A stretch of DNA of 64,000 nucleotides from Treponema sp. (GCA_017961705.1 JAGCWT010000113.1:8681-72680); one strand, 5' to 3'. Positions 40,361-54,023 are shown, numbered from the stretch's first letter. The notes: generated from the letters alone by a model not told the origin. Numbers and translations: made by a program.

Positions 40361-40393
40361 ATTCTAGCAAATAAAGTTTTTTTTTGCTATACT
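40361..40393. promoter_or_regulatory. Overlapping symmetric divergent promoters with T9 in the shared spacer
   Basis: Plus: TAGCAA(40365)-17 nt-TATACT; minus: TAGCAA(40389)-17 nt-TAGAAT; both -10 boxes have an upstream TGn. Confidence 0.6.
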
Positions 40394-40406
40394 ATTTAAA
40401 AGCTAT

Positions 40407-40778
40407 ATGAAAAAGCATAACAAACTCTTTCCTTTTCTCTTCATGCATTTAGCCTTTCTCGTTTACACGCTATACCCGCTTTTGGGTAAGTTTGCCACAC
40501 GGTATGACTTTTTTTCCTTACAGTTCATCGTACTTTACTGTGTGGTTTTTGCAATTCTCTTTTTGTATGCCATCCTCTGGCAACAGGTTTTAAAATACAT
40601 ACCTCTTACAACAACAATCGCAAACAAGTCTATTACTATTATCTGGGGTATGATTTTTGGGCTACTGTTCTTTAATGAAAAAATCACGCCAAAAATGCTT
40701 GTTGGAGCGGTCCTAATTCTTTCGGGAATCCTTATTCTATGCACTGAAAAAGAAAAATTGCAGGAGAATGCAGCATGA
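40407..40778 (+). CDS. EamA/SMR-like small transporter (ArnE/F-like flippase subunit)
   Basis: Four TMs; WQQVLKYIPL, FFNEKITPKMLVGAVLILSGI. Confidence 0.85.
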   Translation: MKKHNKLFPFLFMHLAFLVYTLYPLLGKFATRYDFFSLQFIVLYCVVFAILFLYAILWQQVLKYIPLTTTIANKSITIIWGMIFGLLFFNEKITPKMLVGAVLILSGILILCTEKEKLQENAA

Positions 40779-41110
40779 TTTTATACAGTGCAATCCTGAT
40801 TTTTTCGGTATTTATCTCGGCATTTTCACAGGTTCTCTTAAAAAAATCTGCCCTAAAAAGCTATGACTCTTTCATTCGGGAATACGTTAATATTTATGTC
40901 GTTCCGGCCTATGCAATCTATTTTTTGGCGGTTTTTTTGGATTTAATTGCACTTCGGAAAGTTCCTGTATCTTTCGTTCCGGTAGCCGAAGCTTCCAGCT
41001 ATGTTTTTGTGCTTCTGTTCGGGCGCATTTTCTTTAGGGAATCTTTCTCTAAGCGGAAGGTTCTTGCGATGGCTTTAATTCTTGCGGGGATTATTGTGTT
41101 TGTGATATAA
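40775..41110 (+). CDS. EamA/SMR-like small transporter (partner subunit)
   Basis: SQVLLKKSA, FFRESFSKRKVLAMALILAGI; ATGA overlap with the previous gene. Confidence 0.85.
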   Translation: MILYSAILIFSVFISAFSQVLLKKSALKSYDSFIREYVNIYVVPAYAIYFLAVFLDLIALRKVPVSFVPVAEASSYVFVLLFGRIFFRESFSKRKVLAMALILAGIIVFVI

Positions 41111-41157
41111 TTCAATTTCTAATTGAAACAAAGTTTTATTTATGATATTCTAATACT

Positions 41158-42882
41158 ATGTCTCGGTTTGTACTATTTCCTACCATTAAAAAAAACACTG
41201 GCATTTTATTGTCAGTGTTTTTTATTCTCTTATTGTTTGTAATACTTTTCATAAATAATTTTTATACATTTTGCTGGTCAGACGAGTCCTTTTACATTTC
41301 GTCTATTCATCGTCTTATAAATGGAGACTGCTTATTTACAGACGAATGGCACCCAACCCTGTTTTATGAACCGCTGCTTTTGCCTTTTTACTATTTATAT
41401 ATTTTTATTACAGGTGGAACGGAAGGAGTTTACCTTGCAGCCCGCACTGTTCAACTTTTCCTAAGGCTTTTTACTTGCTTTTTTTTGTATTTCACACTTC
41501 GGGAAAAAAATGGAAATTTTCCGGCTGTGGTTACTGCAATTCTGCTTATGCCTTTTTTGCGAGCAAACATAAAAGGATTAAGTTATTATGCCCTATCTTT
41601 AGATTTCTTTATAATTGGAATTTTATGTCTTTATAATTTTTATATTGCACGGGAAAAGCTTATTCTAACTTTTATTGCAGGATTGTTTTTTTCATTTACA
41701 GTTTTATGCAATCCATTTACTGCCTTTGTTTATATTGGTTATTCAGTATGGTATCTCATAAGGTCAATACGAAGAAATGAAAGTATAAAACCAATCCTCC
41801 TTGTCTGGGGTGGAACAGTTTTTGCAGCTGCCTCTTATATCTTATATTTGGCTACAACAAGTACAATTACCGGATTTTTATCTAGTTTTCACAATATTTT
41901 TGAGACACCAAATTATCAAAAATCATCGCTTTATGATGTTTTGATTTTTCCACTAAATAAATATATAACAAACTTGTTAAAGCCATATAAATATACGCTC
42001 CCATTTTTTATTGTTGCTGTAATTACGCTGCTTGTATTAAAAATTAAAAAAATAAGACCAAGTAAAAAAATTAAGTTTACAATATTTGTACTAAACTTAA
42101 TTTTTTTTATCTACAACTTGAAGGTAAAGAAAAGTAATCCTGGTTCCACTTTTGTTGCGCTTGCATTTTTTACATGCATATTTATTCTTCTTTATCAAGA
42201 CAAAATTTTTGATAAAACTAAACATATCCTTTTTTTTGTGATTCCAGGAATTCTTTTTTCTATTGCATGGTCATATTGTTCGGATACGAGTTACACTGTT
42301 TTTACAATTGGGTATGCCGTGGCAATGCCTGGTATGATTTGTTTGATTTTTGAACTTAGCCAAATTGTTTTTTCAAAAAATAAACAAAGATGTATTTTTC
42401 TTGCATTGTTTTTTTGTTTGATGATAACAATGTCCTTGTTTCAAAGATTTCATTATATTTATCGTGATGGGAAAAATTCTGAACTTGTATGTAAAATTGA
42501 AAATGGGCCAGCGAAAGGACTTTTTACTACAAAAATTCGAAAGCAAAAATATGATGAAGTCTATAAAACAATTTCAAAAATTTCAGATAAATATCCGAAT
42601 AAAAGTATTTATATAACACCTATGATTCCTTGGTCATATTTACTTTTGAATACTAAATATTCTGGTCCTTCTACGTGGCGTGGATATCTTGATGATTATC
42701 AAATATATAATTACTTTGAAAAAGACAATCATCCATACCCTGATTTGATTTTAATGACGAATGAAGAATACACCATTGATTCGCCTTATAAAATTCCTCA
42801 AACAGAATATGCTAACACGCTTTTAAAAAAATATGAAAAAATATCTCTGTCCATAGGGGAGCTTTTGGTACGAAAGGAATGA
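41158..42882 (+). CDS. Polytopic GT-C-fold glycosyltransferase (ArnT/GtrC-like)
   Basis: WSDESFY acidic motif after TM1, many further TMs, soluble C-terminal domain. Confidence 0.65.
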   Translation: MSRFVLFPTIKKNTGILLSVFFILLLFVILFINNFYTFCWSDESFYISSIHRLINGDCLFTDEWHPTLFYEPLLLPFYYLYIFITGGTEGVYLAARTVQLFLRLFTCFFLYFTLREKNGNFPAVVTAILLMPFLRANIKGLSYYALSLDFFIIGILCLYNFYIAREKLILTFIAGLFFSFTVLCNPFTAFVYIGYSVWYLIRSIRRNESIKPILLVWGGTVFAAASYILYLATTSTITGFLSSFHNIFETPNYQKSSLYDVLIFPLNKYITNLLKPYKYTLPFFIVAVITLLVLKIKKIRPSKKIKFTIFVLNLIFFIYNLKVKKSNPGSTFVALAFFTCIFILLYQDKIFDKTKHILFFVIPGILFSIAWSYCSDTSYTVFTIGYAVAMPGMICLIFELSQIVFSKNKQRCIFLALFFCLMITMSLFQRFHYIYRDGKNSELVCKIENGPAKGLFTTKIRKQKYDEVYKTISKISDKYPNKSIYITPMIPWSYLLLNTKYSGPSTWRGYLDDYQIYNYFEKDNHPYPDLILMTNEEYTIDSPYKIPQTEYANTLLKKYEKISLSIGELLVRKE

Positions 42883-43099: not shown

Positions 43100-43527
43100 T
43101 TATTCAAACCAGTTTTCCATCATTAGCGGGGAAACTTCTTGGATGGGTTCAAAGTGCTTGGTGTTGCGGGTTACCAGGACCATGTTGTTTGAGACTGCAA
43201 TGGCGGCAATTTGCGTGTCCTGGAAGTCAATAGGGGTGCCTTTCTCTTCTAGGCGTTGGCGGATGTCTGCCTGAATCCAGGCCGCGTGGTTGTCGTACTA
43301 TATGATTGGGTAGTTGGCTTGAATGTCGTCGATTAAGTCGGAGAATAGCAAATCCTTCTTTTTTCCACTGGGCATACGCTGTACACCGAAAAGAAGTTCA
43401 TTCCATGTTGTAGAAGAAATTCCGCAAAGTTTTTCACGTGCTTCTGATTGAAAGACACATTCTGGTTGGGATTTGCCCTCATTAGTTCTGATACGATATT
43501 AGTGTCTAGTAAATAGATAGGATTCAT
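43100..43527 (-). pseudogene. vapC: VapC/PIN-domain toxin pseudogene
   Basis: YLLDTNIVSE start; frameshift near codon 24; the alternative frame gives ISSTTWNELLFG...YPII-TAG(43298-43300)-YDNHAA...FQDTQIAAIAVSNNMVLVTRNTKHF...ENWFE. Confidence 0.88.
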
Positions 43528-43856
43528 TCTTCTGGAACCTCCACATCATCAAAAATATGCTCAGCCCCGGGACGACCAAAGTAATTTCTGTCGCGCAGGC
43601 TGTCAAAATATTCGGTGTAGTCAAAATTGTCGTCTTCAAGACCATATTTTTTTCGATTGTCCTGTAGCTTTTGCGCCAGGCTTTTTTGGGGCATGCTTGT
43701 TGCCTTCATTTCGTCATAGTCAGATTTTGAAATAATGTAGGCCACTTCCTGATTGTAGCGGGTGATTGGAACCGGACCTTCGGTTTCTGCCATGTGGATG
43801 AAAAATGGAAGCTTGTTCTTTGCTTCAAAAACGGGAACTGCATTGCACATAGACAC
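43524..43856 (-). CDS. Phd/YefM-type antitoxin
   Basis: VFEAKNKLPFFIHMAETEGPVPITRYNQEVAYIIS; ATGA overlap with vapC. Confidence 0.85.
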   Translation of the reverse strand: MSMCNAVPVFEAKNKLPFFIHMAETEGPVPITRYNQEVAYIISKSDYDEMKATSMPQKSLAQKLQDNRKKYGLEDDNFDYTEYFDSLRDRNYFGRPGAEHIFDDVEVPEE

Positions 43857-44044
43857 CTCCTGTATATGCAGATATTATATGAGTGTTATAGCTATCTGTC
43901 AAATTTGTAGCTATAAAATACTTTTGGCCATGGAATAATATAAATATATAAGTAGGCTTTGGACTGTTCCATAAAATTTGTAAGTGAAAATTTTTTTGCA
44001 AACTGTGATGATGCAAAGAATTCCTGTGATTTTTTATTTGGAAC

Positions 44045-44115
44045 CTTTGCCGGAGAGGTGCCCCTTTAGTACCGCCCGTATGGACGGTATGGCCGTTAGG
44101 GAAAGGGAGCTCGCA
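44045..44115. repeat. GC-rich hairpin related to the type-2 repeat core
   Basis: AGTACCGCCCGTATGGACGGTATG resembles AGTACCGGCCTGAAAGGACGGTATG at ~54641. Confidence 0.5.
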
Positions 44116-44134
44116 AAGAAGACTGCATCCAAAA

Positions 44135-45379
44135 TCAGCTGAGCTTTTGCACTGTTTCTATCATGAAGTCGGCGGTGCGTTTTCCGGCTTCGCCTATGTG
44201 CTGCCAGGCCTGGGCTTTTGCGCTTGCACGGCGCTGCTTTAGTTCCGGGCTGTCGGAGGCGTTTTGGATTACGTCCTTTATGCGGCCAAAGTCTTTTTCT
44301 TCCAAAAGGATACCGCAGTTTTTAAGTGTCTGCATTTCCCAGAGGCCTTCGTAGTTTTCACCGTGGATGTCGTAGGCATCGTAGGGCAGGAGGTCCATTT
44401 TGCTTGCGGCATAGATAACAGGCTTGTCGCAGAGGAAGGTGTAGTCGAAGATGATGCCGGAGAAGTCGGAGATCATGATGTCGGCTTTTTTTAGCGAATA
44501 GATGTTGTCGCGCTCGTAGTCCCAGGTGACGTTTGCCTTGTCCTTGTAGCGTTCCGTAAGTTTGTTAAGCATTTCCGCTTCTGAGATTTTTGACTGCGGG
44601 TGCGGGCGGATTATGATGTTGAACCCTGTTTGGATAAGTGGGTCTAAGAGGCGTTCACCATAGAGCGAAAGGAGGGCGCTTTTTCCCCATGACGGAGAGA
44701 CGAGAACCGTGTACTGGTGGTTTTCTTCGGCTGGTATTTCTGCAATCTTTTTTTGGAGCACGTCCAGGTAGGTGCAGCCTACTGTTACAAGCTCTTTTGC
44801 AGGAAGGTTACGCTGCTTTTCCAGGATGCGTATGTCTTCTCCTGAATAGTCGCCGGTTAGCAAGACGGAATCAAAGAAGTCTAGGCCAAAGAGCCTGTAC
44901 ATTGAAGAGTCGGTGGTTGAATGGAAGATGTGGCAGTAGTGCTTTACGTTTTTGCTGCGCTTCCACTGGTAGACGTTTACGCCGGGCGTTGTGCAGACAA
45001 GGATTCCTGCGCTCATCATGTTGAGTTTTGCATAGGCGGAGTTTCCAGTTCCTATGACTTCCGGTTTTACGTACTTGAAATTCTGGCTAAAAACCGGGTC
45101 TTCGGCGGACGAGACGTAATAGGTGATTTCCGTTTCGCGCTTTTCGAATTCCTGTAGTACAGGGAGGAAGACGTTCCAGTAGCGGCGGTCTTCACAATAA
45201 ATTACGTACTTCTTATATGAAGAATCCTGAATTACACCGTTCTTTTTGCCGGAGATTAGCACTTTTAGTTTAATCCAGACTGCCTTTGAAAGAAAGAACA
45301 GTGTGGTTGCGGCTCCAATCAAGATTGAAAAGAGCATGCTTCCCGTTCCAGGGTCAATATAAAGGAGCATAAGGTTCAT
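44135..45379 (-). CDS. CDP-glycerol:glycerophosphate transferase family (TagB/TagF-like) protein with an N-terminal YIDPGTGS anchor
   Basis: HIFHS, VLVSPSWG, IIRPHPQ, ADIMISDFSGIIFDYTFLCDKPVI. Confidence 0.85.
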   Translation of the reverse strand: MNLMLLYIDPGTGSMLFSILIGAATTLFFLSKAVWIKLKVLISGKKNGVIQDSSYKKYVIYCEDRRYWNVFLPVLQEFEKRETEITYYVSSAEDPVFSQNFKYVKPEVIGTGNSAYAKLNMMSAGILVCTTPGVNVYQWKRSKNVKHYCHIFHSTTDSSMYRLFGLDFFDSVLLTGDYSGEDIRILEKQRNLPAKELVTVGCTYLDVLQKKIAEIPAEENHQYTVLVSPSWGKSALLSLYGERLLDPLIQTGFNIIIRPHPQSKISEAEMLNKLTERYKDKANVTWDYERDNIYSLKKADIMISDFSGIIFDYTFLCDKPVIYAASKMDLLPYDAYDIHGENYEGLWEMQTLKNCGILLEEKDFGRIKDVIQNASDSPELKQRRASAKAQAWQHIGEAGKRTADFMIETVQKLS

Positions 45380-45395
45380 TTTTTATCTTCCTGCT

Positions 45396-47366
45396 TTATT
45401 TTCCTAAAAATTCTTTTATAAGGTTGAATGCCTTGTCCATCCACTCTTTTGGTGCAACAGTTACGCGCATTGCAAGCTGTCCGTTTTCCGTCCACAGGCG
45501 TACGAGGATGCCATTCTGCGCAAGGTAGTCCTTGAGCTTTTGCGTGTCTATTGAATTGTCAAAATGAATGAAGACAAAGTTTGCGGCAGATTTGAATGCC
45601 TTTACGTTTGCAAGCGTATTCATCTGGGCAATAAAGTTGTCCCTTATTTGGGCGGTTGTCTTTGTAAGGTTATCGTAATAAGCCTTGTCCTGCAAAGCGG
45701 CGACTGCTGCCTTTCTGCCGAGGTTGCTTACGCGGAAGGGGTTAAGATCCAGTTTGAAGACCTGCTTTGCCATTGGTGCGCACAGTCCGTAGCCAATGCG
45801 GACTCCTGCAAGGCCATAGAGTTTGGAGAAGGTTCGGCAGAAGACAACGTTGTTGTAGGAGTTCAAGAGGTGCTTTGCGTCGATTTTTTCGGAAGAGAAT
45901 CCCAAGTAGGCTTCGTCTATGATTACCAGAGAAGACGGGTTCTGCTTTACGATTTTTTCTACATCGGTCTGGCTCATGACTGCGCCGGTCGGGTTGTGGG
46001 GTGTCGTAATTACGATGATTCTTGGGTTCGTTTCGCGGGCCTTTGATAGGAGGCCTTTTACGTCAAATTCGTATGAATCTTTGCCGGGCTTGATTTCGTA
46101 GTATGCGGCCTTTGCAAAGTGGAGTTCCACTACGGACTTGTAGTAGTTCCATGCGGGGGCGGAAATGAGTACCGTGTCGTCCTTGTTGAGTACAAGGGTC
46201 ATTATTGTCTTTATGACATCGGATGAACCTGAGTGGACAAAAATGTTGTCTGTAGGAAGGTCCAGCATCTTTGAGACTTCAAGGGCAAGTTCATCTTCGC
46301 GGGTAAGGTCGTAAAGGCACAAGTCTTCCATCTTGGCATTGTGGAAAACTTCAAGGCATTTTGGGGATGCACCAAAGAGGTTTTCGTTTACGTGCATGCG
46401 GCCTGTAAGCTGTTCTGTTGCGACTACTGAGTACTGCTTAACGTCTGTGTAGTTTGAAAGGTAGGAGATGCGCTGGGTGCTGTTTACGAATTCTTCTTCC
46501 TGGAAGAACTGGTTTACAAATTCCTTGAAGCTTGGGTTGAATTCGATGATTTCTTCCGTTGTGTCGAATTCCTTGCATTCAGCATCTGTTGTCTTGCGGA
46601 TTTTCATGTTGAGTACATCGATGTGCTTTGCATAGAAGTGGTCCCAAAGCATGTACTTCATTTCTGGATCGTAATATTCCTTAACCATAAGGTCTTTGAA
46701 GGTGTCGGAAAAGTCTTTGCGCCAGAATGATTCGCCTATGATGTACCAGCTTTTTTCACCGCCGCGCTTTACTTCGCGCATGTAGCCGTTTTTGTCAAAA
46801 GCCTTTACGCAGTCTTCATTGATGAATTCATCAGAATATTTGGCGGCATAGTATGAGTCGTAAACGTAGTCGCGGTAGACGTTGTGGGCAAACCAGTTGT
46901 CCGAGCAGCAGATGTAGGAATTTTTTATATAGTCCTTTGCGGCATACAAAGAAGATATGTTGTTTTTTTCCTGCCATTCTTCGTTGTCGATTACAATCAG
47001 TTCAGGATATTTTTTTGCCATTTCGTAGTATTTTTCTTTTAGATAGCCTACGACGATTACGATTTCTTTGATTCCCGCATCGTGCATCTGCTTAATCTGG
47101 CGCTCAACCATTGTGTCGCCCCTTATTTCGAACAGGCCTTTTGGAAGGTAGTTGGAAAGGGGCATGCATCTTCTGGAGCGTCCTGCCGCCATAATGATTG
47201 CATTGTCTACTTTATATGGAGCAAGTGCTTCGTAGCCTGAATCTGTGATTTTATTGCCGTCAGTCCAGCCGTTCTTTTGGCAAGCCTGCTTGAGTTCATC
47301 AGAAAAAGATGAGGTGTCATTCCTTTTGTGGACTGCATACAAATATTCAAATTCCTGTTCGGTCAT
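45396..47366 (-). CDS. Fusion of LicC-like sugar/alcohol-phosphate cytidylyltransferase and class I/II PLP enzyme (HisC/CobD-like)
   Basis: NAIIMAAGRSRR..PKGL, VVGY, NNISSL, CSDN; then NEN, PHNPTG, IIDEAY, RTFSKLYGLAGVRIGY. Confidence 0.88.
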   Translation of the reverse strand: MTEQEFEYLYAVHKRNDTSSFSDELKQACQKNGWTDGNKITDSGYEALAPYKVDNAIIMAAGRSRRCMPLSNYLPKGLFEIRGDTMVERQIKQMHDAGIKEIVIVVGYLKEKYYEMAKKYPELIVIDNEEWQEKNNISSLYAAKDYIKNSYICCSDNWFAHNVYRDYVYDSYYAAKYSDEFINEDCVKAFDKNGYMREVKRGGEKSWYIIGESFWRKDFSDTFKDLMVKEYYDPEMKYMLWDHFYAKHIDVLNMKIRKTTDAECKEFDTTEEIIEFNPSFKEFVNQFFQEEEFVNSTQRISYLSNYTDVKQYSVVATEQLTGRMHVNENLFGASPKCLEVFHNAKMEDLCLYDLTREDELALEVSKMLDLPTDNIFVHSGSSDVIKTIMTLVLNKDDTVLISAPAWNYYKSVVELHFAKAAYYEIKPGKDSYEFDVKGLLSKARETNPRIIVITTPHNPTGAVMSQTDVEKIVKQNPSSLVIIDEAYLGFSSEKIDAKHLLNSYNNVVFCRTFSKLYGLAGVRIGYGLCAPMAKQVFKLDLNPFRVSNLGRKAAVAALQDKAYYDNLTKTTAQIRDNFIAQMNTLANVKAFKSAANFVFIHFDNSIDTQKLKDYLAQNGILVRLWTENGQLAMRVTVAPKEWMDKAFNLIKEFLGK

Positions 47367-47427
47367 AGTTTTTTTCTCCTGTATATTTAAGGCATAAAGA
47401 TGCCCTTATATTCTACTCCTATTTTAA

Positions 47428-50151
47428 TTAGTTTTCAATATTAGCTTCTGTCCAGCTGGATGCCTTAAGAACGTCGTCTTTTACACGCCACCACTGGTTT
47501 TTGCGGACCGGGAAGGTGTAGTCGCCCTGCATTAGCCAAGCCTGATGCACGTCACTGCAGCTTATTATGACGCCGTCTTTTTTTATGGAAGAAGTGTCCA
47601 GCGGTATTTTTTTGTTTGTAAATGGGTTTACCGGGTCTTCCACGATTCCGTTCAGGGCAATAGATGGAACGTCTCCATTTGTCATGAAAGTTCCGTCGGT
47701 TTTTAGGGAGCCTGTCTGGTTAAAGTCTTTTACCATAAGCAGGGGGTGGAAATGTCCGCGGCCAGTGTACCTGTCGCCGGCAATTTTTTCGTCCAGGGCA
47801 TCGTCTTTTTCCATGCAGTCTTCATAAGTTGTACGGCTGTGGTCAGCTGCTATTATGATGCGGGTGTTGTCGTAAACGCCCTGCTGCTTTAGGTAGTCAA
47901 GCCACTTTGCAATCTGTTTGAATGCCGCCATGTTTGTATGGTAGGCCTCTTCATTCTTAAAGCGGCTCTGGCCCTTGTTTGTAATTTTTTCTGAAGGAAC
48001 ATAGTCTGGTGCCTGCATGAAAGTGGATGAATGGGTAAGTTCATTTACAATGCAGATGTAGGAGCCCGAATTGGATTCTTCCGTAACTGTTAGTTCTGGG
48101 AGGAAAGAGAGGGGGGCATAGTTGTCTATTATGTTTGTGTAAGATGTAACGTTGTCGTCCGTGTTCCAGTACTTTCCCTGCTGATAGATTATTTCCCTTA
48201 CGATTGCGGGGCTTGTTCGGAAAAAGCTAAAGAAGAGCATGTTGCGCTTTAAGAGTTTTTCCGTGTTGTCAAGTCCGGAGGATTCGCGGTGGGCTTTGTA
48301 CCAGGCGCTTGAATATTTGCCAATTGTCTGGTAACCGGAAATTTTTTCGTAGGGGTCTGTTATTGTAAGGTCTGCATAGGCATTGTAGTTTGCCCAAGAA
48401 GGGTCTGTTATGGTTGCGGAAAAGTCTGCCTGTTCTGTAAAAATGCGGGGCAAAAGCAGCAGGGCTTCGTTGTTCTTTTTGTAGAGAAGTTCGTCTTTTC
48501 TTTTGTTCATCTCCAAGGGGGCATATTCGTATCCGCCGTAAACAAGGGGGGCTCCCATTAGCGTGTGGCCGTTAAAAGAGAGTGTGTTCTTGTAAAGGGT
48601 AAAGCCGGAGAATGATTCGTTAAAAGAAGGGTCTTCCTTGAACATTTCTTCCGCATACTGGTTTTCCGACCGGTCAAGCATAAAGACTATGACGTTCTGC
48701 TTGTTTTTTGAAAGCTTAAAAATCGGTTCTATTTTTGCAGAGTCGGTTCCGCTTATCTGGAGGAATTCCTTGTACTGCTTTTGAATCGTTGCTGTGTTTA
48801 TAAGGGCCAAAGCTGTAACGGCAAAGATTAGAAGCGAAGTTAGGCTGCAGTGGATTTTTGCCTTCTTGAAAGGAATTGTGAATACTATTGCAAGGAGCAG
48901 AGCAGCCAATACAAAGAGGTTCAGCAGGCTTGGCATTGAAATAGTTCTGAAGTTTACCGCATTCAGGAAGGTGAGCGTTGCGGAGACATCCCCATAGTTC
49001 AGCATAAAGAAGAATGAATTTACAATGGCACTTGCGGCTATCCAGCACATAAACGCAGAAAGCAAAGTCTGAATCTTTTTGTTGAAGAGGAAGTAGACGC
49101 ACAAAGGCCAGAAGAGGAAAAATCCTGCCGACTGGGTTAAAACCGTCTTTATGTAAAAGAGGGGATTTGGATGTTCGCCGAGCCCTGAAAATTCAATTGG
49201 TGAAGAGGAAACCAAGGCCGCCGGAATGGAAAGGCCTGCAAGTACAAAAAGCAGGACGCAGGAAAGGATGTAGAGGGAATTCCTTGTTTTTCTTGATTCA
49301 GCAAGAACTTTGAGCGGGCCTCCGATAAGCTTGTTTGCAAAACGGATAAAGACTGGGGCTAGGAATATGCAGGCAAATACCAGCATTGCCACCAGGGTGT
49401 AGGAGAATTTTATCTTTAGCCTAAACAATATGTAGGCAAGGAGTATTACGCAGATTGCACAGCATAGAATCCAGAATTTCTTGAGGGGGTTCTTGAGTTT
49501 GTAGAAGATGTTTTTTACCAGGCTGAATATGTTGTTGAATGTCCAGTAAAGAACAAGGCCTGCCGGTGAGTCATAAAGAATGATAAGGAAGATGGCCGCC
49601 ATTATATAAATCTGAAGCTTTTCCCTAAGCCCGTGACCCTTTGAATAAATTGCGCCGGATATGCAGTTTATTAGCGTCATTGCGATTGGCAAGATGTTTA
49701 CGGAAAATGCCCCTATTGAAAACAAGGCGTCCGGTGCACCCATGTCGCGGATGAAGAGGAAGCTTTCTCCGTTCAAGTCGCTAAGATGAGAAAGATAGCT
49801 GTAAGCGGCAAGGAAAAAGGGAACCTGAATTAAAAGGCCGAATGATGAGCGTAGTGCCATAATTGGGCTGTAATGCTGCTGGCGGTAGAAAGTGGACGTC
49901 ATCATGTAGCGTTCATCGCCAGAAAATGCCTTTTTTATGCGTTCAAGCCCGGCTTTCATTTTGCCCTGTTTTTCGCGCTCAACTTCCTGCCAGTGTTCGG
50001 CAACGGCATAAAGCGGAAGGCAAAGGATTGTAATTCCAACGGAAACACAAATAACTGCCAGTCCTTCGTTATGGAAAAATTTCTTGGAAATGGCATAGAT
50101 AATTTCTATTATTGTATAGAGAGGATAGATTATCAGGTTGTATAGCAGCAT
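47428..50151 (-). CDS. YidC/Oxa1-like domain fused via TM region to an LtaS/EptA-like (alkaline phosphatase superfamily) domain
   Basis: LCLPLY, LLIQVPFF, FLFIRDMGAPD, NILPI, PAGLVLYWTFNNIFS; then NVIVFMLD, GHT, ELTH, YDNTRIIIAADH. Confidence 0.85.
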   Translation of the reverse strand: MLLYNLIIYPLYTIIEIIYAISKKFFHNEGLAVICVSVGITILCLPLYAVAEHWQEVEREKQGKMKAGLERIKKAFSGDERYMMTSTFYRQQHYSPIMALRSSFGLLIQVPFFLAAYSYLSHLSDLNGESFLFIRDMGAPDALFSIGAFSVNILPIAMTLINCISGAIYSKGHGLREKLQIYIMAAIFLIILYDSPAGLVLYWTFNNIFSLVKNIFYKLKNPLKKFWILCCAICVILLAYILFRLKIKFSYTLVAMLVFACIFLAPVFIRFANKLIGGPLKVLAESRKTRNSLYILSCVLLFVLAGLSIPAALVSSSPIEFSGLGEHPNPLFYIKTVLTQSAGFFLFWPLCVYFLFNKKIQTLLSAFMCWIAASAIVNSFFFMLNYGDVSATLTFLNAVNFRTISMPSLLNLFVLAALLLAIVFTIPFKKAKIHCSLTSLLIFAVTALALINTATIQKQYKEFLQISGTDSAKIEPIFKLSKNKQNVIVFMLDRSENQYAEEMFKEDPSFNESFSGFTLYKNTLSFNGHTLMGAPLVYGGYEYAPLEMNKRKDELLYKKNNEALLLLPRIFTEQADFSATITDPSWANYNAYADLTITDPYEKISGYQTIGKYSSAWYKAHRESSGLDNTEKLLKRNMLFFSFFRTSPAIVREIIYQQGKYWNTDDNVTSYTNIIDNYAPLSFLPELTVTEESNSGSYICIVNELTHSSTFMQAPDYVPSEKITNKGQSRFKNEEAYHTNMAAFKQIAKWLDYLKQQGVYDNTRIIIAADHSRTTYEDCMEKDDALDEKIAGDRYTGRGHFHPLLMVKDFNQTGSLKTDGTFMTNGDVPSIALNGIVEDPVNPFTNKKIPLDTSSIKKDGVIISCSDVHQAWLMQGDYTFPVRKNQWWRVKDDVLKASSWTEANIEN

Positions 50152-50153
50152 AT

Positions 50154-52847
50154 TTATTCTCCAAACGGGAAAATTTGTTTCCAGTTTTCGTTTTTTGTTA
50201 TGTCTCCGCTTACCGTATACCAGTCGTCATTAGAGATAATCAACTTTGTATGCTCACGGTTACGCGTACTTTCTGCATTTGGGTGACAAATTTTTACGAA
50301 TTCATCTTTGTTGGGAAGGTCGTATTCAAGCCCAGTGAAGGGATTTTTTGCGTTCGGGAAAATATCCCTTGTTGCAATTGCCGGGGTGTCTGCATTTGTC
50401 ATAAAAGAGAAGTCCTTTGTAAGGTGGATTCCGTCCGGGCTGGGGCGGCGGTCGTTAAAGTCTTTTACGATAAGGCTTGCAGTTACGCTTTCTTTTGGAT
50501 AGGGCGGCTTGTCGGACTTTTCAAATTTGCCTGTGTCAATGTATGTTCCGTGGTCAGAGACTATGATGATGCGGGTATTGTCGTACAGGTCGTTTTCTTT
50601 TAGCCAGTCAAAGAATTTTGCATAGCAGCGCAAGGTTCCTGCCTGTGTGTTGTACTGGGCGTTTTTTGCCCATTTTGAAGGACCTGTCTGCGTAACATCT
50701 TTTACCGGTATGTAGTCCGGGTACTGAAGCCTGCTGGGTTCGTGAGTGGAAAGGTTGTCTATCATGGTGAAGGTGCTTTTTTCTGCTGAACCGTCAAACA
50801 TTTCCGGGAAATAGATAAGGCATGAATAGTTGTCTATAAACTGGGAGAAGTGGTCTTTGCGGCCGTTTGCATTCCACCAGCGCTTGTGATGGACCAAGCG
50901 TCTTAAAACTGGAGGGAAGGTCTTAAAAATACTGAACATGATGAAATTGTGCTTTATGCTTTCGCTTATGTAATTGGTCTTTTCTATGCCGTTTTGTTCA
51001 TACCAATAGTCTGAATATAGGCCTGTCGTTAAAACACGGTTTATGTCCGGGTAGTCTTTGTACATGTCGGTAACAGGTTCTTTGCCAAAGTTTTCGTAGG
51101 GCATGTCGGAAACAGTTGCTTCCCAGCCGTTTTCCATAAAAGTGACTGGCATGGAAAGGATAGATTCGTTGTGCTTTTTCTGCAAAGTTTCCGTATCCCT
51201 TTTGTTCATCTCTGCCGGAGTAAAGCTGTAGCCGCCAAATATTCCCGGTACGCCAACCATTGTAAGCGAACCAAAAGAAACAGTGTTAGGATAGAATACA
51301 AAGCCGTCAAAATGTTCCACCAGTTCCGGCTTTTCTTCAAACACTTCGTCTATGAGCGGAGAAAAGAGCCTGTCCTGCATAAAGACAATTACGTTTTTGC
51401 CTGTTTTGGAAAGATGGTACACAGGTTCAATCTTGGAAATTGTCTGCTTTTTTTCCATATTCAGGTAGGCCTTGCTGACAATTGAAATATTGCGCAAAGA
51501 AACGGTTGTTAGGCAGATTGCTGCAATGATAAAGATGGGCGAAAGTACTTTAGACTTTTTCGTAAGCACAAAAACTATGGCTGCAAAAGCTATAAGGGCT
51601 ATAAGGGCATTTAATGCGATTTGCCACAATGGTGCCGAGAAAAACTGTGCTTCCATAAAGTCAAGGTTTTCGGTAAGCGGTCCGTATGAACCGGTAAAGG
51701 CAAAGTTGTTAACGAGTGCATATACGGCAAGGAATGCTGCCATAAGAGTTAGGATTTTCTTTATCTTTTTTCCGAACAGGGCATAAAAACAGACTGGCCA
51801 AAATACGTAGAAGCCAAGTCCCTGGTAGAAGGCTGTCCTTAGGAATATGAAAGGAGACGTGTATTTGTCTACGTAGCAGAATTCCTGGGGCTCACTTTCT
51901 ATAAGCATGGAAGGAATCGTAAGGCCTGTTAAAAGGGCGATTGTTAGCGAAGAGAAAATGAATATGCAAAGCCTTGTCTTTGGGGACCGGTCTATGTCTG
52001 TAAGCATGTTGTCCAAAAGCCAGTTTACAGCCTTGATGATTAAAGGGGCAGCCGCAATGATGATGCAGATTAGGGCAAGCATTGCACGGAGTTCGATTTT
52101 TCTCTTCTGCATTGCAAATATGGCTACGAGTATACCGCAGATGCATGCCGCAAGTGCTATTCTGTAAAGCACTTTGACCGGATTCTTGAACTTGTAGAAG
52201 ACGTTTTTTACCAGGGAAAGCAGGTTGTTCATTGTCCAGTACATTACAAGTCCAGCCGGAGAATTGTAGAGTATTACAAGAAAGACCAGTGCGGAAACGT
52301 AAATCTGAATTTTCTCGCGTTTGTCTTTGTGGCCGTAGGAATAAATGGCACCGGAAACGCAGTTGATTATAGTCATTGCGATGGGAAGAACATTCACTGT
52401 GAATGAACCTATGGAAAACATTGCGTCTGGGCTGCCCATATCCCTTATGAACAGAAATTTTACTCCGTTAAGGTTGGGCAGGTGGGACAAGAATGAATAT
52501 GCCGCCATAAAAAAGGGAATCTGAATCAAAAGGCCGAATGAAGAGCGAAGGGCCATAATAGGGTGGTAATGGTGCTGGGTATAAAAAGCGTTCAGCATCA
52601 TGAATTGCTCGTCACCCTTGAATGCTTTTTTTATGCGCTTAACGCCGGGTCGCATGCTGTCTTCCAGAATTCTTTCTTTTTCCTGCCAAGATTCGGCTAT
52701 TATGTACAGCGGAAGGCAACAAAGCGTTACGACAAAGCTTAGTCCTATTACAGAAATTCCTGAACTTCTAGTTAGTTCTTCAAAAAAAAGGTAAAAAATT
52801 TCAAGAATTTGTTTTATAGGATAAATTACTAAATAATAGAAAAGCAT
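50154..52847 (-). CDS. Second YidC/Oxa1-LtaS/EptA-like fusion (tandem paralog)
   Basis: CCLPLY, LLIQIPFF, FLFIRDMGSPD, PAGLVMYWTMNNLLS; NVIVFMQD, SLT, STHEP, YDNTRIIIVSDHG. Confidence 0.85.
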   Translation of the reverse strand: MLFYYLVIYPIKQILEIFYLFFEELTRSSGISVIGLSFVVTLCCLPLYIIAESWQEKERILEDSMRPGVKRIKKAFKGDEQFMMLNAFYTQHHYHPIMALRSSFGLLIQIPFFMAAYSFLSHLPNLNGVKFLFIRDMGSPDAMFSIGSFTVNVLPIAMTIINCVSGAIYSYGHKDKREKIQIYVSALVFLVILYNSPAGLVMYWTMNNLLSLVKNVFYKFKNPVKVLYRIALAACICGILVAIFAMQKRKIELRAMLALICIIIAAAPLIIKAVNWLLDNMLTDIDRSPKTRLCIFIFSSLTIALLTGLTIPSMLIESEPQEFCYVDKYTSPFIFLRTAFYQGLGFYVFWPVCFYALFGKKIKKILTLMAAFLAVYALVNNFAFTGSYGPLTENLDFMEAQFFSAPLWQIALNALIALIAFAAIVFVLTKKSKVLSPIFIIAAICLTTVSLRNISIVSKAYLNMEKKQTISKIEPVYHLSKTGKNVIVFMQDRLFSPLIDEVFEEKPELVEHFDGFVFYPNTVSFGSLTMVGVPGIFGGYSFTPAEMNKRDTETLQKKHNESILSMPVTFMENGWEATVSDMPYENFGKEPVTDMYKDYPDINRVLTTGLYSDYWYEQNGIEKTNYISESIKHNFIMFSIFKTFPPVLRRLVHHKRWWNANGRKDHFSQFIDNYSCLIYFPEMFDGSAEKSTFTMIDNLSTHEPSRLQYPDYIPVKDVTQTGPSKWAKNAQYNTQAGTLRCYAKFFDWLKENDLYDNTRIIIVSDHGTYIDTGKFEKSDKPPYPKESVTASLIVKDFNDRRPSPDGIHLTKDFSFMTNADTPAIATRDIFPNAKNPFTGLEYDLPNKDEFVKICHPNAESTRNREHTKLIISNDDWYTVSGDITKNENWKQIFPFGE

Positions 52848-52853
52848 AGGAAT

Positions 52854-52882
52854 ATTATAGTAGTTTTTATTTTCACGTGCAA
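52854..52882 (-). promoter_or_regulatory. Promoter of the YidC-fusion operon (leaderless)
   Basis: TTGCAC-17 nt-TATAAT, 6 nt before ATG 52847; no Shine-Dalgarno sequence. Confidence 0.65.
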
Positions 52883-52967
52883 GCGAGGCTTTGGTTAGGT
52901 TTTTTTGTGCAAAAAATTTGCGTGTTTGTGTCAGTTTTTGAATTTTTAGGGGCTATATATAGTATGG

Positions 52968-54023
52968 ATGGAAAATATGAAAAAAATACTTTTGGTTTTG
53001 ATGCATGTTGTTTTGCTTGCCCTTTGTTTTGGCGGCTGTTCGCTCGGTGATGCGGATGGTGAAGCAAGCAGGTCGGAAAGAAGAAGGGCTTCGGCCAGGG
53101 AGCTTGGCAGCAGGCAGAAGCTTAGGGTTGCAAACTGGAATGTCCAGACATTTTTTGACAGCACAACAAGCGGTCTTGAATATGATGAATTCAAGAAAGA
53201 CGGAAGCTGGGGACAGGAAGCATACACTGTGCGCCTTGAGCGTCTTTGCCAAGTGATAAAGGCTTTGGATGCGGACGTTTTTGTAATGGAAGAAATTGAA
53301 AACGAAGGCGTTATGATGGACATAAGCAATTTTTTGGCAGGGGAATGGGACAAGAAGAAGGTCTATGCCTACGGTTGCTTTGCAAAGGATTTTGGTGGTG
53401 CAATTGGGTGCGGAGTGCTTTCACGCTGGCCTGTAAGCGGGCTAACCGTTCACGGGGTGGATTTTCGTAAGCAAAAGTCTGATATGCCAAGGATGAGGCC
53501 TTTGATGCAGCTTTCGGTTTGCAAAGGTAGCCGTATGCTTACTCTTATGGTCAACCACTGGAAGAGCATGAGCGGGGGTGAAAATGCAACGGAGAAGTGG
53601 CGCAATCTTCAGGAGTCGGTTCTTTCGCGGAAGGTTGGGGAAGAGCTGGCTCTTGGCAAGGCTGTCTTGTGCTGCGGAGACTTTAACCGCGATATTGGAA
53701 AATTCAAAAAGGGAGGGGATAGCGGGACAATCCTTTTGAGGGAACTTGCTTTTGGAAAACAAAATGACTTTGGGGTAGAGGTGCTAAGCCCTTGGTATGA
53801 TTTTTCTCAAAGCCTTGTTGAACCGGGGAGCTATTACTTTAACGGCGAATGGTCGCGCATAGACCAGTTTTTTTATGCGGGTGATGCTGAAGTTGAATAT
53901 TTTGAAGCTGCCGCCTCCGAACCATGGAGTGAAGGGGAAAGTAAAATTCCCAAGAAGTACAAGATTTGGAACGGAAGCGGCTTTAGTGACCATCTGCCGA
54001 TAGTCTGCGAAGTGTCTTTTTAG
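52968..54023 (+). CDS. Endonuclease/exonuclease/phosphatase-family lipoprotein (probable extracellular nuclease)
   Basis: Lipobox FGGC; NWNV, EEIE, NHWKS, GDFN, IDQ, SDHLP. Confidence 0.88.
   Translation: MENMKKILLVLMHVVLLALCFGGCSLGDADGEASRSERRRASARELGSRQKLRVANWNVQTFFDSTTSGLEYDEFKKDGSWGQEAYTVRLERLCQVIKALDADVFVMEEIENEGVMMDISNFLAGEWDKKKVYAYGCFAKDFGGAIGCGVLSRWPVSGLTVHGVDFRKQKSDMPRMRPLMQLSVCKGSRMLTLMVNHWKSMSGGENATEKWRNLQESVLSRKVGEELALGKAVLCCGDFNRDIGKFKKGGDSGTILLRELAFGKQNDFGVEVLSPWYDFSQSLVEPGSYYFNGEWSRIDQFFYAGDAEVEYFEAAASEPWSEGESKIPKKYKIWNGSGFSDHLPIVCEVSF

Follow-up and report, generated by a model that had tools for sequence, protein, structure and literature searches.

What do two large membrane proteins, each predicted to combine the fold of the protein insertase YidC with an outward-facing phosphotransferase, do in one operon with a TagF-like enzyme and a putative donor-making enzyme? 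We examined this question in a ruminant-gut Treponema MAG, within a 64,000-nucleotide stretch of DNA (the window; all positions are counted from its first letter). The sequence-only reading of this window had described four co-oriented genes: two paralogs of about 900 aa joining a complete YidC/Oxa1 core to an alkaline-phosphatase-superfamily domain without a CxPxR sulfatase motif, a cytidylyltransferase-PLP fusion, and a TagF-like transferase. From these it had inferred a relay in which a CDP-amino-alcohol is made, loaded onto a membrane carrier by the TagF-like enzyme, moved across the membrane by a repurposed YidC groove, and transferred to a surface glycan or protein by the fused domain.

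A compact four-gene operon encoding two YidC fusions

The observation was confirmed. The four ORFs are co-oriented on the minus strand at exactly the stated coordinates (52847->44135), encode proteins of 897, 907, 656 and 414 aa (P0001 to P0004), and are separated by gaps of 2, 61 and 16 nt. A divergent Exo_endo_phos gene lies upstream, and a Phd antitoxin lies downstream. The genes and their parts are as follows.

50154..52847 (-): fusion gene 1 (P0001, 897 aa), with a YidC core, a 2-TM hairpin, a 5-TM module and a predicted AlkP-fold ectodomain
52182..52847 (-): YidC/Oxa1 core of P0001 (residues 1-222), with an amphipathic N-helix and TM1-TM5
52563..52694 (-): cytoplasmic coiled-coil hairpin of the YidC core (residues 52-95), whose tip is the predicted docking site for the TagF-like enzyme
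51984..52181 (-): variable 2-TM hairpin linking the YidC core to the transferase module (residues 223-288)
51462..51983 (-): 5-TM module of the LtaS/EptA/PbgA type (residues 289-462)
50154..51461 (-): predicted alkaline-phosphatase-fold ectodomain (residues 463-897), with Asp492, Thr529, His702, Asp765-His766 and Lys795
47428..50151 (-): fusion gene 2 (P0002, 907 aa), a paralog with the same architecture
45396..47366 (-): donor gene (P0003, 656 aa)
46551..47204 (-): LicC-type cytidylyltransferase domain of P0003 (residues 55-272)
45396..46469 (-): HisC-like PLP domain of P0003 (residues 300-656), which probably makes a 2-amino-alcohol phosphate
44135..45379 (-): TagF-like gene (P0004, 414 aa)
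45242..45379 (-): N-terminal anchor of P0004, consisting of the motif LYIDPGTGSMLFS, one TM helix and then a basic stretch
44135..45214 (-): TagF-like GT-B catalytic domain of P0004 (residues 56-414), cytoplasmic

Both long proteins matched Pfam 60KD_IMP over residues 30-218 (76.8 and 75.5 bits, cut-off 35) and TIGR03592 (89.2 and 83.5 bits, cut-off 84.3), and they are 40% identical over their full length. The motifs LPL, LIQxPFF, FLFIxDxxxPD, PAGLVxYW, NVIVFMxD, SLT/GHT and DH, all named in the sequence-only reading, were all present, and a search of the two proteins for CxPxR or [CS]x[PA]xR found none. P0001 matched Pfam Sulfatase at 31.3 bits (cut-off 25), whereas P0002 had no Pfam hit in this region but keeps all the catalytic positions (Asp493, Thr530, His707 and Asp770-His771, together with Thr41 in the YidC core).

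Predicted structure and conservation of the fusion family

The AF2 model of P0001 had a pLDDT of 94.5 and a pTM of 0.90. Its YidC core matched B. halodurans YidC2 (3wo6) with a TM-score of 0.72 and an rmsd of 3.3 A over 219 columns, and helices at 223-245 and 251-280 form the linking hairpin. The top Foldseek hits were the full-length 5-TM plus AlkP proteins PbgA, EptA and MCR-1, VIA-align matched PbgA (6xlp) to model residues 285-897, and the ectodomain scored Z about 20 against LtaP, phosphonate monoester hydrolases, sulfatases and YejM. The charges of the loops fit an outward-facing C-terminal domain.

The fusion family is large (1,373 clusters at E<=1e-30). In 134 members, Asp492, Thr529, Asp765-His766 and Lys795 are invariant, and His702 is conserved in at least 90%. 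The YidC part is not a relic, as TM1-TM5 are the most conserved regions of the family (0.87-1.60 bits entropy, against 2.33 for the ectodomain), while the 2-TM hairpin is the least conserved (3.07 bits). In the coiled coil, 11 of 44 columns are at least 90% conserved, and the tip motif is conserved in all loci. Arg72 of B. halodurans YidC2, the groove Arg, aligns with Thr41 of P0001, and this column is N/T/S/Q in 132 of 134 members (plus 1 C and 1 G) and never R or K, whereas the housekeeping YidC of the same genome has Lys there. This housekeeping copy belongs to a separate yidD-yidC-jag locus on another contig (C167), and its 617-aa YidC has a periplasmic domain and scores 197.6 bits.

The donor gene and the anchored TagF-like gene

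P0003 matched NTP_transferase and NTP_transf_3 in its N-terminal domain and Aminotran_1_2 (E 3.5e-45) in its C-terminal domain. The former matched S. pneumoniae LicC (1jyk, E 1.4e-24) and the PntC domain of Tde1415 (6pd1, E 2.7e-12). The latter scored 225 bits against hisC TIGR01141, below its cut-off of 276, and 147 bits against CobD, and HisC structures matched at E 7e-36. The PLP and phosphate-binding positions are kept, but the positions equivalent to E. coli D85 and Y110, which bind imidazole, are Ser and Trp. The genome has a histidine pathway, so histidinol phosphate is not excluded as the substrate on pathway grounds.

P0004 matched Glyphos_transf at 35.4 bits (cut-off 22.1). Its AF2 model (pLDDT 89.2) had TagF (3l7i) as the top Foldseek hit (E 1.9e-12), followed by the TagF-like capsule polymerase entries 8qoy and 8a0c. 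The N-terminal anchor was seen in the hydropathy profile and as a helix at 10-46 in the model. Within its motif, YIDPGTGS was present in all 45 homologues aligned (one starts C-YIDPGTGS and three vary at Met15) and invariant in the 39-sequence alignment, and all 12 motif-bearing ORFs checked in related genomes were TagF-like.

Genomic pairing and a predicted complex

To better understand the relationship between the fusion and the TagF-like gene, we compared their distributions. In the same 201 Spirochaetota genomes, the fusion and the anchored TagF-like gene were found in exactly the same 33, spanning 6 families. The two were adjacent in 29 of 42 loci having at least 1.5 kb of flank on both sides, and all 5 genomes with an 'orphan' fusion had a fusion-TagF pair elsewhere. 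The same holds in a MAG labelled Lachnospiraceae. Tandem arrays of 2-3 fusions beside a single TagF-like gene were common (26 of 76 loci), as expected for one donor serving several acceptors. Donor genes varied beside this constant pair and included NT-HisC-like fusions, Ppm plus Ppd plus NT-class-V aminotransferase (the Tde1415 type that makes CMP-aminoethylphosphonate, CMP-AEP; PMC6697681), and plain LicC-like genes.

A complex prediction of fusion residues 1-470 with the TagF-like protein docked the latter on the tip of the YidC coiled coil, with ipSAE of 0.67, 0.68 and 0.67 and a best control of 0.01. This mark was reached by 58 of 80 solved complexes and 2 of 110 mismatched pairs, counts that hold only roughly because our own alignments were used. 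The prediction is a model's confidence rather than a measurement, and it left out the ectodomain and did not confidently place the invariant N-terminal anchor motif, for whose role we have no explanation. The runs agreed in at least 74% of contacts, and the partner's pLDDT was at least 82. No solved complex of this kind exists, so the result is unlikely to come from the model's memory. The predicted interface joins coiled-coil tip residues 71-91 to TagF-like residues 135-138, 163-168, 190-192 and 331-336, and several of its positions are invariant or >=90% conserved in their families (fusion I72, F76, E80 and M83; TagF-like V136, Q138, F164, D167 and R190).

A possible load-flip-transfer machine

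The relay proposed by the sequence-only reading was partly supported by these results. It had named three outcomes in advance that would count against it, and each came out otherwise: a YidC fold is predicted for the N-terminus with high confidence, homologues do co-occur with CDP/CMP-alcohol enzymes and above all with the TagF-like gene, and the fusions are not the only yidC genes of the genome. The predicted docking and the systematic loss of the groove's positive charge gave new support.

Our best reading, which we consider about as likely as not, is that the operon encodes a membrane machine that puts a CDP-activated amino-alcohol phosphate onto the spirochaete envelope in three coupled steps, with CMP-activated phosphonates as the equivalent in some other loci. 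In this view, the HisC-like domain of P0003 would transaminate a keto-phosphate to a 2-amino-alcohol phosphate, with serinol phosphate from DHAP as the simplest candidate, and the LicC-type domain would convert this product to the CDP derivative. P0004, anchored by its TM helix and docked on the coiled coil, would then transfer the phospho-alcohol from CDP-X to the hydroxyl of a membrane lipid carrier, such as a diacylglycerol- or glycolipid-type lipid. Finally, the arginine-less but still polar YidC groove would move this head group across the membrane, and the fused Thr-nucleophile domain would pass the phospho-alcohol from the lipid to an envelope acceptor, in the way LtaS and EptA use PG and PE. 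The two paralogs would serve two different acceptors. We found no paper describing such a route.

Our analyses show the domain architecture, the folds, the catalytic residues, the obligate genomic pairing with the TagF-like gene, the variability of the donor genes and the existence of a predicted docking interface, whereas the identity of the head group, the lipid carrier, flipping by the YidC groove and the acceptor are inferences, and no carrier, flipped intermediate or acceptor has been observed. Lipid scrambling by YidC and other insertases has been reported (bioRxiv 10.1101/2023.09.01.555937), but it is a general, unspecific property that has not been tested for this arginine-less domain, and the geometry of the groove relative to the 5-TM module was not examined here. 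In addition, characterised TagF/TagB enzymes act on lipid-linked glycans or growing polymers rather than on bare lipids, and characterised LtaS, EptA, OpgB and BcsG enzymes use bulk phospholipids and need no dedicated flippase. As the sequence-only reading had noted, the four-gene operon contains no other flippase gene.

Alternative explanations

A possible but less favoured alternative is that the TagF-like enzyme adds or polymerises the phospho-alcohol on an undecaprenyl-linked glycan or glycolipid in the cytoplasm, as TagB, TagF and LicD do, and that the fusion exports this lipid-linked product through its YidC and TM part, its ectodomain then trimming, ligating or further decorating the product outside the membrane rather than receiving the same phospho-alcohol from a simple lipid donor. 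The closest fold and family of P0004 is the polymerase TagF, together with the TagF-like capsule polymerases, many loci are embedded in glycan gene clusters with GT4 and GT2 glycosyltransferases and sugar-nucleotide enzymes, and the operon has no ABC exporter and no Wzx gene. The predicted docking and the co-occurrence fit this model equally well. However, the YidC groove spans only part of the bilayer and is not known to pass glycan chains, a point not tested here, and the Thr/Asp/His/Asp-His set is the signature of enzymes that take a small phospho-group from a phosphodiester donor. The arrays of 2-3 fusions beside one TagF-like gene also fit several acceptors for one donor better than several exporters.

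Slightly less likely, and also doubtful, is that the YidC-fold domain keeps a protein-handling role, inserting and holding the N-out anchor of the TagF-like enzyme and perhaps helping its own downstream TM segments, so that it merely tethers a cytoplasmic and an extracytoplasmic enzyme acting on the same envelope polymer from the two sides. The ectodomain would then use ordinary PE or PG as its donor, and no special lipid would be flipped. The YidC signature motifs and fold are fully retained and strongly conserved, the TagF-like anchor, with its short acidic N-tail, one TM helix and basic stretch, has the classic profile of a YidC-only substrate, all characterised relatives of the ectodomain use bulk phospholipids, and docking on the coiled coil is what a scaffold would show. 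Against this, the groove charge kept as Lys in the housekeeping copy is absent from all 134 fusions, a housekeeping YidC is available to insert the anchor, and other LtaS/EptA-type enzymes need no fused insertase. The tight linkage to changing CDP/CMP-donor genes, including CMP-AEP genes, is hard to explain if the ectodomain ignores those head groups.

That these are just extra housekeeping YidC paralogs with a long C-terminal extension and unrelated neighbours, as their database names ('membrane protein insertase YidC', YidC/Oxa1 family insertases) and their Pfam and NCBIfam matches imply, is very unlikely and is contradicted by equivalog YidC models scoring 18-63 bits against cut-offs of 276-1094, the missing groove charge, the confidently predicted AlkP-fold enzyme with an intact catalytic set in the C-terminal 430 residues, and the perfect match of the TagF-like gene to the fusion in the 201-genome profile.

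Comparison with known systems

The five-TM core with its coiled-coil hairpin and the signature motifs (LPL, Q-x-PFF, D-x-x-x-PD, GL-x-x-YW) are shared with YidC/Oxa1/Alb3 insertases (B. halodurans YidC2, PDB 3WO6/3WO7; E. coli YidC, 3WVF/6AL2). In addition to the lost groove charge, the fusions differ in the family-specific conserved motif of the coiled-coil tip, in the 7 further TM helices and the enzyme domain fused to the core, and in lying apart from yidD and jag.

With the membrane-anchored AlkP-fold phospho-alcohol transferases and relatives, namely LtaS/LtaP, EptA/MCR-1 and PbgA(YejM), the fusions share a 5-TM module followed by an extracytoplasmic AlkP-fold domain, with Thr at the nucleophile position and Asp and Asp-His metal ligands (LtaP, Z 20.0). 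GacH, OpgB and BcsG are further such enzymes, of which GacH and OpgB were not included in the comparisons and BcsG appeared only as a low-ranked ESM Atlas lead. By sequence, the domain is equally remote from LtaS, sulfatases and phosphonate monoester hydrolases, as the family profile scored only E 9e-4 against LtaS and 3e-7 against a sulfatase, and no EptA or LtaS NCBIfam model matched. The first metal ligand is Asp rather than Glu, and the fusion to a YidC core and pairing with a cytoplasmic CDP-X enzyme suggest a dedicated donor rather than bulk PE or PG.

P0004 resembles the TagF/TagB/TarL CDP-alditol phosphotransferases and TagF-like capsule polymerases (PDB 3L7I; 8QOY, 8A0C) in its GT-B fold and motifs (SPSWG, RPHPQ, SDFSG-x-x-FDY). 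However, its identity to TagF is only 12-16%, TagF is a peripheral membrane protein without this TM anchor, P0004-type genes always co-occurred with the YidC fusion in the genomes profiled, and the donor in this operon is probably not CDP-glycerol.

P0003 has the same layout as the PntC-AEPT fusion Tde1415 of Treponema denticola (PDB 6PD1; Rice et al. 2019, PMC6697681), with an N-terminal LicC-type cytidylyltransferase fused to a C-terminal aminotransferase that makes the amino-bearing substrate, and true Ppm-Ppd-PntC/AEPT sets sit beside fusion-TagF pairs in other Treponema loci. That paper does not mention YidC, sulfatase-like or TagF-like partners. The PLP domain of P0003 is a HisC-type class I/II enzyme rather than the class V AEP transaminase, and no PEP mutase is encoded here, so the head group would be a phosphate ester rather than a phosphonate.

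The proposed logic, in which a cytoplasmic enzyme loads a group onto a lipid, the lipid is flipped and an outward-facing enzyme transfers the group to the envelope, is that of ArnC-ArnE/F-ArnT and GtrB-GtrA-GtrX. The proteins belong to entirely different families, the group would be a phospho-alcohol rather than a sugar, the proposed flipping and transferring parts are fused in one polypeptide, and the loader is predicted to dock on it. An Arn-like cassette lies 1.3 kb away from the operon, at 38266-42882.

Operon organization and origin

The window belongs to a Treponema MAG from animal gut, and its nearest public contigs are those of Treponema sp. UBA3662 and a buffalo-rumen MAG. The DNA runs that hold the stretch are gut and bovine-gut metagenomes. 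Four ORFs follow one another on the minus strand, with gaps of 2, 61 and 16 nt:

50154-52847, minus strand: P0001, 897 aa, first YidC fusion protein
47428-50151, minus strand: P0002, 907 aa, second YidC fusion protein
45396-47366, minus strand: P0003, 656 aa, cytidylyltransferase fused to a HisC-like PLP domain
44135-45379, minus strand: P0004, 414 aa, TagF-like protein

A divergent Exo_endo_phos gene lies upstream and a Phd-type antitoxin gene lies downstream, so that the unit is a compact four-gene operon. The observation made in the sequence-only reading held: every motif that it had described in the two long proteins is present, and, as it had stated, no sulfatase CxPxR motif occurs. Contigs from four ruminant-gut metatranscriptome libraries, 95-99% alike, cover parts of all four genes and bridge the gene junctions. 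This is only weak support for expression, because DNA can be present in such libraries and a contig is not a transcript; the contigs also leave parts of the two fusion genes uncovered, which is no evidence of silence. A promoter and terminator scan of 43900-53100 found no more sites than in shuffled sequence and gave no information on transcription units.

Architecture of the two fusion proteins

P0001 and P0002 are 40% identical over their full length. Both match the Pfam model 60KD_IMP (PF02096) over residues 30-218, with 76.8 and 75.5 bits, respectively (cut-off 35), and TIGR03592 scores 89.2 bits for P0001 (cut-off 84.3) and 83.5 bits, just below the cut-off, for P0002. An AlphaFold2 model of P0001 built on 134 family members is very confident (pLDDT 94.5, pTM 0.90), and its helices, together with the hydropathy profile and the charged loops, give the following layout:

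residues 1-222: an amphipathic N-helix, then the five TM helices and cytoplasmic coiled coil of a YidC core
residues 223-288: a poorly conserved 2-TM hairpin
residues 289-462: five further TM helices
the C-terminal 430 residues: a globular domain, predicted to lie outside the cytoplasmic membrane

A YidC fold at the N-terminus, which had been set in advance as a condition that the fusion reading had to satisfy, is thus predicted with high confidence. Foldseek found two classes of match. One is YidC itself, namely B. halodurans YidC2 (3wo6; TM-score 0.72, rmsd 3.3 A, 219 columns) and E. coli 6al2, and the other, forming the best hits overall, is the full-length 5-TM plus alkaline-phosphatase-fold proteins PbgA/YejM, EptA and MCR-1. 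VIA-align aligned PbgA (6xlp) to model residues 285-897. The outward position of the catalytic domain follows from the helix count and the K/R-rich loops; this topology is predicted and was not measured. Each protein is thus a YidC core joined, through a hairpin, to a complete LtaS/EptA/PbgA-type membrane enzyme.

The ectodomain looks like an active phosphotransferase

Sequence searches of the PDB with the TM plus ectodomain part returned only marginal sulfatase hits, and fold comparisons were therefore used. VIA-align scored residues 482-897 at Z 20.5-18.3 against phosphonate monoester hydrolases (PMH), sulfatases, LtaP/LtaS and YejM alike (for example, 4uop_B at Z 20.0, rmsd 4.0, 296 aligned), and PF00884 scores 31.3 bits for P0001. 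Across the 134 members, Asn485, Asp492, Thr529, Asp765-His766 and Lys795 are invariant, and His702, Asp820 and Asn835 are at least 90% conserved; P0002 keeps them all. A Thr at the nucleophile position with Asp and Asp-His metal ligands is the pattern of LtaS, EptA and related transferases, although the roles of these residues were assigned from motif position and were not examined in 3D. The formylglycine motif C/S-x-P/A-x-R of type I sulfatases is absent from both paralogs.

By sequence, the domain is a deep separate branch. The family profile searched against the PDB reached only E 9e-4 for LtaS and 3e-7 for a sulfatase, and no LtaS or EptA NCBIfam model, nor Pfam EptA_B_N, matched. Since neither the structural alignment, in which all relatives tie at Z 18-20, nor the profile separates LtaS-type enzymes from sulfatases or PMH relatives, we did not assign the domain to LtaS or EptA.

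The YidC part is conserved but altered

TM1-TM5 of the YidC core are the best-conserved regions of the whole family, with a mean column entropy of 0.87-1.60 bits, compared with 2.33 for the ectodomain and 3.07 for the hairpin, which indicated that the YidC part is under strong selection and is not a decaying remnant. The positively charged residue of the YidC hydrophilic groove (Arg72 in B. halodurans YidC2, Arg366 in E. coli) aligns with Thr41. In the family this column contains Asn (57), Thr (38), Ser (33), Gln (4), Cys (1) or Gly (1), and never Arg or Lys (0 of 134). Equivalog NCBIfam models for YidC score 18-63 bits against cut-offs of 276-1094, and whether the fusions have membrane protein insertase activity was not assayed. 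We also looked for a separate housekeeping yidC, which the sequence-only reading had proposed to confirm, and found it in a yidD-yidC-jag locus on another contig (C167); its product is 617 aa, has a periplasmic domain, scores 197.6 bits and carries Lys at the groove position. The tip of the cytoplasmic coiled coil carries a family-specific conserved motif (I-K-x-x-F-x-G-D-E ... Y-H-P), which is present in every fusion examined.

The TagF-like partner

P0004 matches Glyphos_transf (PF04464) with 35.4 bits against a cut-off of 22.1, covering residues 182-328 only. A sequence search of the PDB returned nothing meaningful, but the AlphaFold2 model (pLDDT 89.2) has TagF (3l7i; E 1.9e-12, TM 0.55-0.58) as its top Foldseek hit, and TagF-like capsule polymerases are also among its best structural matches. 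His150, His153 and His260 are invariant in 39 homologues; they were not matched residue by residue to the catalytic His444 and His584 of S. epidermidis TagF, which leaves it undecided whether they are the equivalent residues. The neighbouring donor genes argue for CDP/CMP-linked head groups other than CDP-glycerol, the use of which was not assayed here. Unlike TagF, P0004 begins with the motif LYIDPGTGSMLFS, followed by one TM helix and a lysine-rich stretch, which predicts a short N-tail outside the membrane and a cytoplasmic catalytic domain. In related genomes the motif occurs 0-4 times per genome and never in the reversed-pattern control, and all 12 motif-bearing ORFs inspected are TagF-like.

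Genomic coupling of the fusion and the TagF-like gene

The fusion family is large. We found 3,721 relatives in the 90% clusters, of which the best 120 are nearly all about 900 aa, 1,373 clusters at 50% identity with E<=1e-30, and 593 relatives in species-representative genomes, of which the best 76 loci are almost all from Treponema, Spirochaetaceae, Sphaerochaeta or Termitinemataceae. At least one member comes from a MAG labelled Lachnospiraceae, and ESM Atlas neighbours point to Bacillota as well, although these are a lead only. In several related contigs (loci L005, L026, L027 and L062), the fusion is split into a YidC-part ORF and an AlkP-part ORF; these could be frameshifts, assembly errors or pseudogenes, and they were not examined for a genuine two-gene form. 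Two or three fusions are in tandem in 26 of the 76 loci.

Among the 42 loci with at least 1.5 kb on both sides, 32 contain a TagF-like gene and 29 have it directly adjacent to a fusion. We then searched the same 201 Spirochaetota genomes twice. The fusion was found in 33, and the anchored TagF-like gene (E<=1e-143) was found in exactly those 33; three further genomes have only weak, anchor-less TagF hits. The 33 genomes span six families and ten genera, but relatives are not independent and no P-value is attached. Five genomes whose fusion appeared to be an orphan all have a TagF-like gene elsewhere, each next to another fusion, and the Lachnospiraceae-labelled genome behaves the same way. In one locus of that MAG (L101, 7015-12347), a fusion gene sits between a GT2 and a Glucos_trans_II (Gtr-type) gene, after dTDP-sugar modification genes; no small GtrA-like flippase gene is called in the 18.7-kb locus, and the fusion occupies the slot where Gtr systems have their flippase. 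The genome of the window, a MAG of 88% completeness, has exactly one TagF-like gene and two fusions, all in this operon.

Donor genes vary beside the constant pair

Co-occurrence with CDP-alcohol enzymes had been proposed in advance as a test, and nucleotide-activation genes were indeed found beside the constant pair, changing from locus to locus. About 16 loci carry an NT-HisC-like fusion like P0003. Others carry PEP mutase, phosphonopyruvate decarboxylase and an NT-class-V aminotransferase fusion, which is the gene set shown biochemically to make CMP-2-aminoethylphosphonate in T. denticola (Tde1415; PMC6697681). That paper calls the later tailoring steps enigmatic and mentions no YidC-, sulfatase- or TagF-like partner. 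Still other loci have plain LicC-like genes or NT-HAD fusions.

The NT domain of P0003 resembles LicC (1jyk, E 1.4e-24 over residues 55-272) and, more weakly, 6pd1 (E 2.7e-12), and PF00483 and PF12804 match; its substrate specificity was not tested. The PLP domain is a HisC paralog, with 225-228 bits against the TIGR01141 cut-off of 276.55, whereas CobD scores only 147 bits. A genuine hisC (295.6 bits) lies elsewhere in the genome, on contig C54. Aligned with E. coli HisC, the fusion keeps K214, D184, N157, R222, R322 and R335; the Schiff-base Lys, the PLP-binding residues and both Arg that bind the substrate phosphate are retained, but the two residues that contact the imidazole are replaced, D85 by Ser and Y110 by Trp. 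The true HisC keeps both. The NT-HisC-like fusions fall into two subclasses, one of about 656-680 aa with Ser/Trp at these positions (loci L006, L014, L034, L036, L044, L054, L055 and L063) and the other of about 603-618 aa with Ala/Phe, with Arg322 replaced by Lys and Tyr187 by Phe (loci L004, L017-L019, L039 and L045), which may mean two different head groups. A third HisC-like gene in the genome (contig C20, 865-1857; L081) scores 238 bits, below the hisC cut-off, and also lacks the Asp85/Tyr110 pair, having Ser and Phe; its context was not examined.

The product of P0003 is therefore probably a 2-amino-alcohol phosphate other than histidinol phosphate. An attempt to exclude histidinol phosphate by absence of the pathway failed, because the genome has IGPD, HisD and a true HisC. 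By analogy with C. jejuni Cj1437, which transaminates DHAP to serinol phosphate (PMC12096443), CDP-serinol is the simplest guess, inferred only, and would be the amino analogue of the natural CDP-glycerol of TagF.

Predicted docking of the TagF-like enzyme on the YidC coiled coil

Fusion residues 1-470 and the TagF-like protein, each as an alignment, were submitted to complex prediction, in which the ectodomain was not included. The ipSAE values were 0.67, 0.68 and 0.67, against a best control of 0.01. This mark was reached by 58 of 80 solved complexes and 2 of 110 mismatched pairs, counts that hold only roughly because our own alignments were used. The runs agree in at least 74% of contacts, and the pLDDT of the partner is at least 82. 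The confident interface joins the coiled-coil tip (residues 71-91) to TagF-like residues 135-138, 163-168, 190-192 and 331-336, which come from both Rossmann-like halves, near the cleft. Several interface positions are invariant or at least 90% conserved in their families (fusion I72, F76, E80 and M83; TagF-like V136, Q138, F164, D167 and R190). No solved complex of this type exists, so recall by the predictor is unlikely, but the result is a model's confidence and not a measurement. No confident contacts were predicted for the invariant LYIDPGTGSMLFS anchor, to which no role was assigned. We also considered a covalent carrier arm on the coiled-coil tip. Within the predicted interface, P0001 has no invariant Ser or Thr and only Tyr89 is nearly invariant, and a cytoplasmic residue also could not carry a group across the membrane; this possibility is unlikely but not excluded.

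A possible load-flip-transfer mechanism

The best-supported reading, which we consider about as likely as not, is a load-flip-transfer machine. In this view, P0003 makes CDP-X, the docked TagF-like enzyme transfers phospho-X to a membrane lipid hydroxyl, the polar, charge-neutral YidC groove moves that head group across the membrane, and the fused Thr-nucleophile ectodomain passes phospho-X to an envelope acceptor, with paralogs serving different acceptors. The chemistry would be the same as that of EptA with PE or LtaS with PG, and would also work for a phosphonate such as AEP, because the P-C bond is not touched. Reports that YidC and other insertases scramble lipids (bioRxiv 10.1101/2023.09.01.555937) make the flipping step plausible. 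A relay of this kind had been inferred in the sequence-only reading, and that interpretation is partly supported. The architecture, the predicted folds, the conserved residues, the pairing with the TagF-like gene, the exchange of donor genes and the predicted interface come from the analysis, all of it computational, whereas the lipid carrier, the flipping, the acceptor and the identity of the head group are inferred, and distances between groove and active site were not measured. An unlikely alternative is the export of a lipid-linked glycan or polymer, and slightly less likely still is a scaffold or insertase model in which the ectodomain uses bulk phospholipid. The database's reading of an ordinary YidC paralog is contradicted by the equivalog scores, the missing groove charge, the catalytic set and fold of the ectodomain, and the 201-genome profile.

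Each part belongs to a known superfamily, namely the YidC fold, the LtaS/EptA-type AlkP transferases, the TagF-like GT-B enzymes and LicC/PntC. The proteins nevertheless differ from housekeeping YidC in groove charge, equivalog scores and gene context, and lack defining features of the LtaS, EptA, sulfatase and HisC subfamilies. Literature searches on YidC fused to or associated with sulfatase-, LtaS- or other phosphotransferase-type proteins, on YidC and aminoethylphosphonate, and on CMP-AEP transferases returned no paper describing this architecture, although the collection searched is incomplete and this is not proof of absence. The combination consists of a YidC-fold domain fused to an outward phosphotransferase, obligately paired with and predicted to dock an anchored TagF-like enzyme, and fed by interchangeable CDP/CMP donors.

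A more far-reaching reading is tentative, less likely than not but with a substantial chance of being correct, and would be categorically new. In this reading, an Oxa1/YidC-fold domain has been converted from a protein insertase into the dedicated lipid-head-group translocating core of a biosynthetic machine, which docks a cytoplasmic TagF-like synthase on its former ribosome-facing coiled coil, flips the newly made phospho- or phosphono-lipid through its charge-neutralised groove and hands the lipid to its own fused LtaS/EptA-like ectodomain. This machine would be the missing transferase stage of the CMP-aminoethylphosphonate (Pnt) pathway, and a general route for cationic phospho-alcohol decoration in Treponema, other spirochaetes and gut Clostridia.

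If the reading is right, it would be the first example of a YidC/Oxa1-fold domain recruited for small-molecule (lipid head group) transport inside an enzyme, which would give the recent in vitro finding that insertases scramble lipids a dedicated, selectable biological role. It would also supply concrete candidate genes for a step that the phosphonate field calls enigmatic, that is, how CMP-aminoethylphosphonate and related CDP-amino-alcohols reach cell-surface glycoconjugates. The predicted interface and the invariant residues make these claims directly accessible to mutagenesis, in a large family currently mis-annotated simply as membrane protein insertase YidC. Finally, it would point to an unrecognised way of adding amine-bearing, charge-modifying groups to the envelope of Treponema and other gut, rumen and oral anaerobes, and such groups bear on resistance to cationic peptides, on immune recognition and on phage adsorption.

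Flanking regions of the window

Three features flank the operon, and the first and third of them were compared with the 76 related loci to ask whether they are part of the system:

52968-54023, plus strand: Exo_endo_phos family gene (351 aa), divergently transcribed, directly upstream of the operon
43524-43856, minus strand: Phd/YefM-type antitoxin ORF, intact (Pfam E 2.4e-8)
38266-42882: Arn-like cassette, 1.3 kb from the operon

The Exo_endo_phos gene recurs in only 1 of the 76 loci, the near-identical UBA3662 contig. The Arn-like cassette holds a DegT-type aminotransferase, a GT2, two small EamA-like membrane proteins (123 and 111 aa) and a 574-aa polytopic protein with no Pfam match, and similar pieces lie near fusions in only 1-12 of the 76 loci, which indicated that it is an occasional neighbour. 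Neither is a core component. Within 43100-43856 (minus strand), the PIN/VapC-like reading frame that follows the antitoxin ORF appears interrupted, with an in-frame TAG near 43300 and an apparent frame change near 43440, and the toxin partner may therefore be a pseudogene. The stretch at 26000-36000 has markedly lower G+C (29-32%) than the rest of the window (40-48%); it overlaps glycan genes and may be a horizontally acquired island.
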